Shown: in pieces, positions 1-44,187 of the stretch | Layout: each line of letters opens with the position of its first letter | Position numbering within the stretch: position 1 is the first letter of the stretch | Assembly (NCBI GenBank): GCA_951406725.2 | Contig: OX597837.1 | Span: 8,308,001 to 8,372,000 of the forward strand | From: Octopus vulgaris | Lineage: Eukaryota | DNA length: 64,000 nt | Direction of reading: 5' to 3' | The notes under the pieces: model-generated | The model's database searches: none | Seen by the model: the letters and a program-made list of their open reading frames with translations, nothing else | Told to the model about the DNA's origin: nothing | Position numbers and translations under genes: made by a program

Positions 1-110
1 TATATATCTTTCTGTCGAAGAGCGTAGGCTCGAAACGTAAAAGATATTCCTAGCGCTATATAATATATATATGTTTATATACATGACATCGTCATTTGTT
101 TATTTTCGTA
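1..110 (+). mobile_element. Hammerhead-bearing short element, family H1 (probably Penelope-like pLTR-derived), cut by window edge
   Basis: Shares ctgtcgaagagcgtaggctcgaaacgtaaaaga and tttgtttattttcgta with copies at 17003-17195 and 43988-44187; followed by (TA)n. Confidence 0.7.
4..47 (+). ncRNA. Minimal type-I hammerhead ribozyme motif with variant core (CUGUCGA)
   Basis: Helix I ATATCTTT/AAAGATAT; core CTGTCGA-A; helix II GAGC-GTAG-GCTC; GAAAC-GTA with palindromic ACGT helix III. Confidence 0.65.
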
Positions 111-200
111 TATATATATATATATATATATATATATATATATATATATATATATATATATATATATATATATATATATATATATATATATATATATATA

Positions 201-518
201 TCCTTTTGGGATTTGGTTTGCAAGATTCATTATGTGAGTTCGTGTGTTGAAGCATATTCTGTTGTGTCTGGGGAGAGTCATTCTCTTTTTTGTGCCTTAT
301 AATTTAACACACCAGCTGGTAAAATTTCCCCTCATTTACTGTTTTTTTAAATAAATTTTCGTTGCATCTTGCAAGCGTTTTAATAGTTTCGAGTCAAAAC
401 TATTAAAAAAAAGGTTTAGAAGAATAATTAAAAAGGAAATATGTCAAAATTTTACCGGTGAGTGTGTCAAATTATACGGCACCAAAAGAGAATGAATCTC
501 CCTAGACACAACAGTACT
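201..518. mobile_element. Fold-back (palindromic) repeat, family F
   Basis: Arm 259-327 is the approximate reverse complement of 447-514; second copy at 16787-16991; flanked by (TA)n. Confidence 0.6.
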
Positions 519-1997
519 ATATATATATATATATATATATATATATATATATATATATATATATATATATATATATATATATATATATGTGTGTGTGTGT
601 GTGTGTGTGTGTATATATACATATATATGTACATCTATACATATCTATATCTATCTATCTATTTACAAAATTTATATTCAGAAGAATATGGTACTTAAAC
701 TGAGGTACCAGAATTTAGTACGGTATAAGCCATACAATTTCAAAGTAAGGTGATTAAACAAGCTTCTTACCACACAGTCATGCCACTATCAAATGAACGA
801 AACAAGCAAAAGAATAAAAGTATAAAAGAATATATATATATATGTATATTATATATATATTCATATATACATATATATATATTTGTGTATGTATGTATGT
901 CTATTTGTGTGCGTGCGTTTCTGTGTGTGTATGCGTAGCACTTGAATTCCGCGTCTTTTCCGCTCCATTTACTCTCTGGCAATTTTTTTTTTTCACACTA
1001 AATTTACTTCCACTCTATTTTGTTCAACGATTTGTGTTTTCCCTTCCGCCATATTAAATCAACCGACAAAAAGCGAGAATTTCAAATATACTGTATTTTA
1101 AACGTTAATATTTCTAGTTCAAATGACAATAACATTAAAAAATAACATAACTATTTTATTTCACTTATATATGAACTAACGCCGAACAAAACACCAGAAA
1201 TATACAGAGGTTTTTTTTTTAATTATACGTCTCCATTAGCAACAAAATAATTAACAAAGTACACAGTTCAGATTGTGATATCCGAGGTGAGAAATGTAAG
1301 TATTTTTTTCATAAAATAGGCCTACTTCAAATTCATTTTTCTCGTCGTCAGATTTTAAAAAAACATGGGGGTGGTGTTCTTAAAAGTATTTTAAAGAAGC
1401 AATTAATACTGGGTAATAGAAATTTGCTCTTCTGTGTTAATTGCCCCCAGTTTAGGAGACCTGACTAAATGTATGTATGCATGGATTCTTTACTTCTTGT
1501 ACTCTTTTAATTGATTCAGTGATTAGACTGCGAACAAGCTGGAGTACTGCCTTGAAGAGTACACAGAACTGTTTGATTAAATGAATGGGGTTTCTTTTGT
1601 CTTTTCTTCCGATATTACTCTTTTTTTCTTTCTTTTTCTTCTTGGCAGTTGTCAACTTAAAAATTAAAGAGTAATGATGTCATTCCGTCAACATGGGAAC
1701 ACAGGTTGCCCTCGTTCAAATATTTTGAATTTGAATTTCTATAATTTTGAATTTCTATTTATCACTTTTCATTTCGAACTCGACAAAGACGGGCAAGCTG
1801 TCGTAATATCGTTCAACCAATAAAACATGTATTGCAATCGCATCGCGTTCTTCGTATTGTCTATTTACAACAACAATAATAATAATAATATTGTGCAAAA
1901 CGAAATATATGGCACTCCAATCATAATTTGAACTTATAACTTGTCTCTTGCGGTTTCTGGGTGAGACTTGGAGCCAACTTTTACAAAAATCAAACAT

Positions 1998-2120
1998 ATA
2001 ATAATCCTTTCTACTATAGGCACAAGGCCTGGAATTTGAGGGGAGGCGGTTACTGGTACTTAATTTATCCACCCCGAAAGGATGAAAGGTATAGTCGACC
2101 ACGGCGGAATTTGAACTCAG
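1998..2120 (-). mobile_element. SINE family B, 3' part
   Basis: gaaaggatgaaagg..gtcgacc..ggcggaatttgaactcag plus tail ctttctactataggcacaaggcc next to (aat)n. Confidence 0.75.
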
Positions 2121-41900: not shown

Positions 41901-42235
41901 ATATATCTATAATATAAGCGAAGAAAAAAAATTACGAACAACATACATAAGAAGAAGAAAAGTAAAACATATATATATATATAAAAGAAATATATATATA
42001 ACAATAAATTATAGAACAACCTACACTTGAAAGAAACGATGGCGGAAAGCGAAACAAAAGACTCAATAATTATTCAAACAATATGTTTAGGAAATATTGA
42101 TTCTGTTTTTCCACATAAAAACAATGTAAGGGGATAAAATAGACCTTACGCAGAGTTATTGCTTTGTTATTAAATACGTAGTTTACTGGCGTTTAAAGAT
42201 GTAACTACCGAAATGGTTCACTACAAAATACTTAC

Positions 42236-42247
42236 CGCGGCAGCCAT
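42236..42247 (-). CDS. Candidate first coding micro-segment (MAAA) of an unidentified host gene; exon 42236-42453
   Basis: caaaATGGCTGCCGCG|GTAAGT donor; upstream acceptor ttctgtcatttcag at 42454; non-repetitive A-rich leader. No downstream exon identified. Confidence 0.3.
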
Positions 42248-43987
42248 TTTGTTTTGTTATTGTTTGGGTAGTTTGTGTGCTTCGGATTTTATTTTGTATT
42301 TGTGTTATGTTTTTTTTGTATGTATTTTTCTGTTTGTTATATTTTCTGGGTTTTTTTCTTCTGGTTTTATTTTTTTTATTTTGTTTTTATTTTTTATTTG
42401 TATCGTTTTTGTATTTGTCGCTTATTATTATCATTATTATCATTCTTTTCTTCCTGAAATGACAGAAGCCAGTTTTAAACCTGATCCTTTGAAGAAGGCT
42501 TATGTATATGTTTGCGTATGGAAACGTGTGTATATATATATATATATATATATATATATATATGTATATGTATATATATGTATGTATATATATATATATA
42601 TATATATATATATATATATATATATATATATATATATATATATATATATATATGTATATACATATATATATATATATATATATACATACATACATATATA
42701 TATATATATATATATATATATATATATATATATATACATATATCTTCATAGATACATGTATATATAAAACGAGAGAAGGAGAGGTGAGACATGCCTAAGC
42801 AGATATGTATATTCAAAAATGACATGTATATATATATATATATATATATATATATACATGTATATATTATATTATATTATATTATATTATATTACATTAT
42901 ATTATATATATTATAAATATATGTACCTATTTTTATTACCTTTCTCGGGTTTCACGCATTAGACTACAGCCATGCGGCCACTCAGCCTTCAAGAGTTTTA
43001 GCCGAATGAATCCGTGACTGAAATGTGTAAAAGAATAAAAGAATAAAAGAATAAATGAATATAATTAAAATTTTAGTGAGGTAGAATATGATTATAAATG
43101 CTGACATTGTGTTAAATATATAAGCTATATAATTCAGTGTAGAGCTATCAACTCAATACAAGGACACATCTTTGCTGTTGTATCCTGTGTTGCCTGGCAT
43201 TTCCCGTCTTACAACATAGTCCTTCATCTAAAAAATCTCGACGGAGGAAAGCCAAAGGTACCTCAATACCTACAGACACCACAGATTACCTCTTTTGAAG
43301 CCTGAGCAATCTAACCATTTTTACTGCGGCCTCTATGCTATTCTCGATGATTCAGTAACGTACCTAGGGCAGGAGGGGCGACGAGAAGGACCCTCTGTCC
43401 CCCGCGATGATTTTACGGCGAGGATTACTGTGACTTTTAGGAATAGGATGCCCGGAAAGGTACATTTTAACTACACATTCTCACTGTAGTAGAAGACACC
43501 TGCCCAAGGTGCAATGCAGTGAAACTGAATCCGAACCGTGTGGTTGGGAAGCAATCATCTTACCACACAGCTACCTCTTCGCTTTATACAAACACATATT
43601 TTATAACACGTCTTATGAGACTTAATGAGGAAGTGGCTTATACAAGTAGTGAGCGGTAATATGGTATGCTATATTAAGCGTAGGAGTTACAAGTATAGTA
43701 CGGCATAAATTGCAGTTGTGGGTGGCACGCAGTTTAGCTACAATACTGCGATGACTCTTATTGCCATTCTTATCGTTATTTTTCTTGTCCAGGGAGGCAA
43801 AGATTTTAACCTGAGGGAGACTTGCGAAACTTTGACAAACTCCACTTGAAAGACGATATGCAGACATATGTACATACATACATACTCTTTTACTCTATTA
43901 TTTGTTTCAGTCATTTGACTGCGGCCATGATGGAATCCTCGTCGTTGTAACCGACGGAATGTCACGATGTGTATGTATATATATATT

Positions 43988-44187
43988 ACGCTATGATAGA
44001 TCGTTAGCTCCTACACGCATTTTTTTCTCTCCTTGTTTCTTTTCTGTGTATCTTTCTGTCGAAGAGCGTAGGCTCGAAACGTAAAAGACTTTTTCTATTT
44101 CTATTCCTGAGCGCCATACTAATACATTTGTTTGTTTGTACTCCACCTGTCTTCGTCTTTTGTTTATTTTCGTAAACTTTCCCGTTA
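43988..44187 (+). mobile_element. Family H1 element, full length, hammerhead at 44051-44088
   Basis: TCTTT-CTGTCGA-A-GAGC-GTAG-GCTC-GAAAC-GTA-AAAGA; TA tracts on both sides. Confidence 0.78.

Follow-up and report, generated by a model that had tools for sequence, protein, structure and literature searches.

We analyzed a window of 64,000 nucleotides of the Octopus vulgaris genome (assembly GCA_951406725.2, contig OX597837.1, positions 8,308,001 to 8,372,000 of the forward strand), in which an earlier reading, made from the sequence alone and called below the sequence-only reading, had pointed out a repeat carrying a hammerhead ribozyme motif with U instead of A at position 6 of its core (U6 and A6 hereafter). 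The genome comprises 2.8 Gb in 227 contigs and is rich in microsatellites. The four copies named by that reading exist, all on the forward strand; copies 1 to 3 have readable U6 cores and the fourth is decayed. As detailed below, these repeats are almost certainly the pseudo-long terminal repeats (pLTRs) of an autonomous Neptune-type Penelope-like element (PLE) of ~4.5 kb, with a hammerhead that carries the A6U substitution throughout the lineage.

Copy 1 (1..110; core starting with C3 at 12, predicted cut after 39) is short and has internal deletions. It had been given as 4-47, which locates the motif correctly but not the extent of the copy, since it starts ~10 bases before the window, at the 5' box common to the other copies. 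Copy 2 (17003..17196; C3 at 17069, predicted cut after 17096) has the modal length of ~200 bp, carries the GCCATG 5' box at 17004 and belongs to the subfamily with A at position 7 (N7=A). Copy 3 (43989..44187; C3 at 44056, predicted cut after 44083), also of the modal ~200 bp, belongs to the N7=C subfamily and is 86% identical to the pLTR of a young full-length unit. Both have TA tracts on either side. Copy 4 (54638..54778, motif at 54653) is older, 5'-truncated and decayed: it shows G5A and G8A in the core as well as G16.2A, retains U6, and its nearest relatives by tail are U6. A fifth relative, absent from the earlier list of copies, lies on the reverse strand at 14420..14600 (ends approximate). 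It belongs to a sister PLE family with the canonical A6, has C3 at 14529, a 3-nt loop 2 and a G12 decayed to A, and provides an internal outgroup. A tblastn search found no PLE coding remnant in the window.

The cores of copies 1 to 3 read C3 U4 G5 U6 N7 G8 A9 and are followed by an extra A, helix II (GAGC/GCTC), GAAA, an ACGT palindrome, a GUA site and helix I. The features of minimal type I hammerheads are thus present, i.e., helices I and II, an extra nucleotide after A9, a palindromic 15.2-16.2 and an NUH site, and the motif is of the Penelope kind, as the sequence-only reading had it, but has U6 in place of the A6 of the canonical CUGANGA core. That reading had described the core, helix II, GAAA, ACGT, GUA and helix I correctly but had overlooked that A9 and G10.1 are separated by an extra A, as is normal for minimal PLE hammerheads (PMC4209133). 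The variation it reported in loop 2 (GTAG/TTAG/ATAG) turned out to be post-insertion decay, as GTAG predominates in each of the five U6 subfamilies described below. Its expectation that standard searches miss the motif agrees with Rfam, which at gathering thresholds gives no match anywhere in the window. When isolated motifs were folded and compared with shuffled sequences, three of the four U6 copies were unremarkable (z -0.25 to -1.37; copy 1, z -2.21). Hence, the case for a hammerhead is based on sequence pattern and conservation rather than folding energy.

To identify the parent element, we looked at the surroundings of related copies. The 30 best relatives of a window copy have their 3' end in common and three of them reach far upstream; one such extended copy (L017) runs into a frame for a GIY-YIG endonuclease and forms a tail-to-tail pair. 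A search with the endonuclease only, which gave 150 scored matches of 5,804 candidates, led to loci with a U6 motif downstream in 27 of the 30 examined. A further 20 larger stretches were selected because they held long frames or adjoined such frames; open reading frames (ORFs) of more than 1000 codons were found in 10 of them, and two motifs ~4.5 kb apart in 12. The order of the unit is pLTR/hammerhead, 5' untranslated region (UTR), ORF for reverse transcriptase (RT) and endonuclease, 3' UTR, and pLTR/hammerhead. Full units thus have the motif on both sides of the ORF, and the PLE ORF ending in the repeat that the sequence-only reading proposed to look for was found. In locus L090, the first motif is at 2077, the ATG at 2832, followed by the RT and endonuclease domains, and the second motif at 6581. 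The 1078-aa product matches Pfam RVT_1 at 454-643 above the cut-off (E=2.5e-7) and GIY-YIG at 874-907 below it (E=0.0065); the CCHH endonuclease motif and the DKG motif (names after PMC8557442) can be read directly in the translation. In 17 other loci holding the ORF, its identity to that of L090 is 97.4-99.7%.

Two observations on this unit are noted separately. At L090:5730-6068 the frame continues for ~110 codons beyond the endonuclease into the pyrimidine-rich 3' UTR, and copies like L017 stop soon after the endonuclease. At L090:2600-2950, from the 5' UTR into the ORF's beginning, contig depth rises ~100-fold in one of four runs; this run is guessed to be RNA, its type being unverified, and contigs cannot show starts or levels.

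The RT and the endonuclease are joined by the linker CSRPRCRTC (CX4CX2C), which fits the CX2-5CxxC linker of Neptune, a type shared with Nematis. A pattern of this type is present in 92 of 120 homologues among the matches listed. The element also has the traits of endonuclease-bearing (EN+) PLEs: a single ORF with RT and C-terminal GIY-YIG, partial tandems acting as pLTRs, 5' truncation and inverted copies. Insertion into microsatellites, a Neptune trait, is seen in the TA tract at the 3' end of 79/90 copies and of 149/172 in another sample. Relatives on metagenome contigs, with RT segments ~51-66% identical and endonuclease segments lower, carry the published hammerhead of Neptune from Acropora digitifera or one-letter variants of it. 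Based on the linker, the CCHH motif and the hammerhead of these relatives, we file the element as an EN+ PLE, probably of the Neptune type.

To estimate how general U6 is, we searched the whole genome with an exact pattern in which position 6 was fixed to each letter in turn, using the reversed pattern as a control. This gave 21,705 matches with U, 473 with A and 730 with C or G, i.e., 94.7% U (n=22,908), and all four letters were seen at N7. The reversed pattern had 0 matches in the genome, so the motif is not due to chance. As an exact pattern presupposes an intact core, a second sample was anchored on the downstream tail alone. Such anchors number 16,404 genome-wide; 80 stretches covering the first 88 places listed, plus 600 kb of unselected blocks, were used, and the 90 copies sampled come from parts of two chromosomes. 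Position 6 was U in 82, C in 2, G in 1, A in 0 and unreadable in 5. Beside long-ORF copies, 30/30 motifs have U6, nearly all with a GUU site. U6 is thus the state of the family, as the sequence-only reading had proposed from three copies, and the genome-wide majority is U6 rather than A6, with helix columns more conserved than the flanks across subfamilies. In the four contig sets that we compared, position 6 was only U among the letters listed; these sets had no informative joint, and contigs cannot show ends, so the comparison carries no weight in either direction.

Two ways of explaining U6 away were considered and rejected. An alternative register, in which GAAGA would supply G5-A9 and restore A6, leaves helix II unpaired, and the 473 true A6 matches share the register of the U6 copies. 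The A6 copies could also have been the active masters, yet 5 of the 20 A6 loci inspected belong to a sister family and the others have tails of U6-type subfamilies; for one of these loci, the closest relatives are mostly U6. As a separate observation, an older U6 subfamily (L101-L130) has C at position 6 in 6/31 copies, above the expectation from decay, and possibly includes a minor C6 sub-lineage; this is the same letter as in the Bcep176 phage variant discussed below.

A6 is found in all 44 published alignment rows that we examined (supplement of PMC4209133), in all 17 motifs found within 80 metagenome loci, and in 25 members of the largest sister cluster of the same genome (the remaining one has C). 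Since sister families and coral relatives keep A6, U6 is likely derived. In the segments next to their tails, single decayed copies of older subfamilies share 62-87% protein identity with the young element, so the lineage is not shallow. Position 6 is not the only core position with a substitution: one sister subfamily (L211, L224, L234, L249 and others) has a fixed U4C core, CCGACGA, in 7/7 copies, and U4C also occurs in several Neptune-type metagenome relatives (L282, L304, L320, L346). Hence, core substitutions are recurrent in this group of PLEs.

To assess the conservation of the motif, copies located through it, allowing up to three mismatches, were clustered by the sequence outside it, leaving out the 20 loci selected for A6 and keeping clusters of at least 4 (145/258 copies). 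The five resulting U6 subfamilies differ by 5-32% in their flanks. Comparing the majority letter of each column, 1/31 constrained motif columns vary across subfamilies, against 42/109 ungapped flank columns (Fisher p=5e-5); by part, this amounts to 0/11 in the core (p=0.008), 0/8 in helix II, 0/2 in helix III and 1/10 in helix I. These p-values are indicative only, because the copies were anchored on the motif and the five subfamilies are few and related. Changes between subfamilies occur at N7 and at H17 (A or U), which hammerheads tolerate, whereas loop 2 and the extra A vary no more than the core does. Within the U6 lineage the helices do not vary; between sister families, both strands of helix I are seen by inspection to differ (TCTTT/AAAGA vs TGTTT/AAAC). 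As the motif lies outside the ORF, codons do not account for the constraint. The pattern fits constraint on an active site with a free N7, but also general constraint on the block.

The copies also have characteristic ends. The 3' end is fixed ~110 nt beyond the predicted cut; at this point the sequence of the tandem unit is TATATA, ahead of the 5' UTR, and copies join (TA)n there. At the other end, 48/90 tail-anchored copies start within -10..+14 of the conserved GCCATG box, 89-106 nt upstream of the predicted cut; 64 copies reach this box, so that the rate of stopping at the box is 0.75, compared with 0-0.31 for nine further 25-nt intervals (p ~1e-29). TA microhomology blurs these junction calls. 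The ~200-bp form with common ends, as the sequence-only reading had described it, is thus the most frequent product in this sample. The same reading had also considered random-length 3' scraps of a Penelope family, which is right as to the Penelope 3' ends but not as to random lengths, given the preferred 5' end. The pile of 5' ends has its upstream boundary at a conserved CA in TCAGT/TCAGA/GCATT, which resembles an initiator. Stalling of the RT at a hairpin could have produced such an edge, but folding does not support it, as no unusually stable hairpin was found just upstream of the preferred end in 8 copies (z +0.57 to -1.55). A similar cluster of upstream 5' ends, judged by eye, exists in the A6 sister family. 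The preferred 5' end is likely the transcription start; for Penelope itself, transcription is known to begin in the upstream pLTR (PMC2377424). In several loci (L262, L266, L275, L277, L278), the 5' UTR or the ORF is directly joined to a pLTR starting at -70 to -100, which fits template switching at the 5' end of the RNA.

Both ends being preferred, and the short form making up more than half of all copies, one may ask if the latter is an element of its own, SINE- or retrozyme-like, transcribed from the presumed start site that short copies include and recopied by the PLE protein. The sequence-only reading had proposed just such a separate non-autonomous element or retrozyme, an idea that gave way when the same sequence proved to be the pLTR of the autonomous element in the loci picked by their endonuclease. 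Short-copy subfamilies with N7=A, C and T are also attached to the endonuclease gene, loci of subfamilies A and C and with N7=G include RT or endonuclease fragments, and 11/90 copies extend more than 100 nt further upstream. Retrozyme-like tandem arrays of ORF-less monomers were not seen in the loci examined, apart from occasional pairs, the copies being dispersed and continuous with the PLE ORF. We therefore consider a self-standing short element very improbable.

By the account that we favor, as somewhat more likely than not, the short copies are pLTRs with a U6 hammerhead that is attenuated and dependent on help, yet working. The preferred 5' end in the upstream pLTR would be where transcription begins, the endonuclease would nick a (TA)n target, and reverse transcription would begin internally, at a pLTR end. 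One transcript would thus offer two priming sites, the first pLTR giving the ~200-bp copy and the second giving longer copies, variably truncated or full. U6 would slow cleavage by breaking the CUGA turn, and possibly also through pairing of the core with the ACGU palindrome; cleavage would then need the help of a second copy or, probably, of the element's own protein, and the uncut RNA would be the likely template for insertion. This last step has a parallel in Poseidon of Anolis, where reverse transcription begins internally, close to where pLTR and ORF meet, uncut RNA serves as the principal template, and the hammerhead is cleaved with protein assistance and is dispensable for insertion in vitro (PMC11167929). 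A hammerhead in which A6C occurs naturally is active, if slowly, and its activity is higher in Mn2+ (PMC3088659; PMC7151607).

Several observations weigh against this account. Few 5' ends lie at the predicted cut (1/90 in the tail-anchored sample and 0/60 in a tail-selected one), with no pile-up, and of 32 TA-flanked junctions 6 fall at +1..+3 and 6 at -7..-4 (by eye). When a type III hammerhead was scanned with a full set of mutants, low activity without rescue was found for every single or double change in the region of the CUGA turn except the C3-G8 swap (PMC9901934); this comparison covers the region of the turn as a whole and not the value for A6U itself. The pairing of core and palindrome is weak in the whole ~200-nt RNA (0.38, 0.03, 0.00). 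A frozen loop 2 and extra A would also be expected from constraint at the DNA level or from protein binding, and the transcription start is inferred from insertion ends only.

Alternatively, in the same element the motif may no longer cut and instead serve as a signal, bound by protein or needed for folding, when the RNA is packaged or reverse-transcribed, or else act in the DNA as a downstream promoter element. In vitro, changes at A6 are highly detrimental (PMC9901934; PMC7151607) and the insertion of Anolis Poseidon is not impaired by hammerhead mutations (PMC11167929); Naiads spread without canonical hammerheads (PMC8557442), and loop 2 is frozen here as well. A core with U6 can also close on itself in the isolated motif: U4-G5-U6(-U7) is predicted to pair with the ACGU palindrome, with a probability of 0.97-0.98 for U6U7 and 0.3-0.8 in other U6 groups, against at most 0.11 in 6/7 A6 groups (intermolecular pairing of palindromes in two-copy co-folding is at most 0.15, in A6 and U6 alike). 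Moreover, of 30 copies with a 5' UTR, 29 continue through the upstream motif and none start at the cut site, which shows that the inserted templates were uncut or re-ligated RNA. However, the A6 sister family keeps the whole motif in 27/30 copies, so read-through is the rule there as well and does not mark U6 as dead. Ends at the cut amount to 2/40 in the A6 sister and 1/150 in U6 (p=0.11), and TA-flanked ends at exactly +1 to 3/9 and 2/32 (p=0.06), counts made partly by eye; the slight excess in the A6 sister is not significant. The restriction of changes to N7, with all four letters, and H17, with A or U, is also what one expects of a hammerhead active site. For these reasons, a motif that has lost cleavage seems to us possible but unlikely.

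At the other extreme, both pLTRs could be cut efficiently in vivo and the RNA circularised, rolling-circle reverse transcription then restoring and hiding the cut site. Such a circle model has been proposed for PLEs (PMC4209133), the loci examined often hold partial tandems in which two ribozymes lie 4.5 kb apart, and read-through of the site would look identical. Yet the sharp 5' end of the commonest product is explained directly by the start of a linear RNA and not by a circle, few ends lie at the cut itself, and substitutions of A6 are slow in vitro. We regard efficient cutting as improbable. The dichotomy drawn by the sequence-only reading, an active variant or spread without cleavage, is the genuine question.

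U6 could even be an off-switch, and this the reason why a lineage that ranks among the genome's most successful retrotransposons kept a change at a universally conserved base of the hammerhead core through at least five successive subfamilies: the pairing of core and ACGU would shut the ribozyme during reverse transcription until the element's protein or a second copy opens it. This idea is doubtful. If it were true, the U6 hammerheads would form a functional, regulated class that searches with CUGANGA or Rfam do not see, and the element's transcription start would be marked by 200-bp copies tens of thousands of times. More generally, the lineage bears on why PLEs keep hammerheads, which are weak in vitro and not needed there for insertion, although almost all canonical PLEs have them. 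The octopus genome offers a natural experiment, with young, intact, autonomous U6 copies beside A6 and U4C sister families and with the rest of the motif constrained. If the U6 motif cuts, hammerheads that are dimeric and assisted by protein do not require the usual base at position 6, and descriptor searches miss tens of thousands of ribozymes per genome; if it does not, the role for which PLEs preserve the fold is one other than catalysis. In addition, the accumulation of 5' ends provides a testable explanation of the way in which a single transcript gives rise to short non-coding derivatives of PLEs.

The window holds other repeats. A MITE-like element with inverted ends lies in the TA tracts adjoining copies 1 and 2 (204-514 and 16793-16995), probably owing to a common preference for TA targets. 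Two abundant interspersed families of SINE-like size, both often in tandem, are found at 19624-19948, 25336-25912, 31597-31883, 38031-38549, 44474-44981 and 46082-46450, and at 21040-21310, 23296-23677, 53087-53410 and 63332-63739, respectively. On the reverse strand, 61753-61936 weakly (67%) matches the PLE unit in its 3' UTR, which is of low complexity, and contains no ribozyme.

A literature search returned no account of a U6 PLE hammerhead, of the present family or of the term 'A6U'; the repeat libraries Repbase and Dfam were outside this search. The closest known motifs are the minimal type I hammerheads of PLEs (PMC4209133), which are alike in the short helix I, the extra nucleotide between A9 and G10.1, the G10.1-C11.1 pair, the loop-less palindromic helix III, the location in pLTRs and the mostly dispersed single copies. 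They differ at position 6, which is A in 44/44 rows and required to be A by the published descriptor, their own core variant being U3-A8. Among PLEs, the nearest is Neptune of Acropora digitifera (PMC4209133), through the hammerhead carried by the metagenome relatives and the C-terminal endonuclease with a CX4CX2C linker; the Neptune-type relatives have A6 (some with U4C or C3U) and a GUC site, whereas the present family has U6 and a GUA or GUU site. Poseidon of Anolis carolinensis (PAc; Frangieh et al. 2024, PMC11167929) shares the tandem pLTR-ORF layout, AT-rich targets, the internal start of reverse transcription and the uncut template. However, its hammerhead overlaps the start codon and cuts with the help of protein, while the predicted motif lies here ~720 nt upstream of the ORF and has U6. 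Metazoan non-LTR retrozymes (bioRxiv 10.64898/2026.07.22.740005; PMC7229834) are likewise short non-coding repeats that bear hammerheads and are related to PLE pLTRs, but they form tandem arrays of ORF-less monomers (10.64898/2026.07.22.740005), whereas the octopus copies are dispersed ends of an ORF-bearing element. Finally, the hammerhead of phage Bcep176 is also a natural substitution at position 6, with an A6C core that is slow in Mg2+ (PMC3088659; PMC7151607). It is a single phage sequence with C6, whereas U6 is found here in more than 21,000 retrotransposon copies across several subfamilies.

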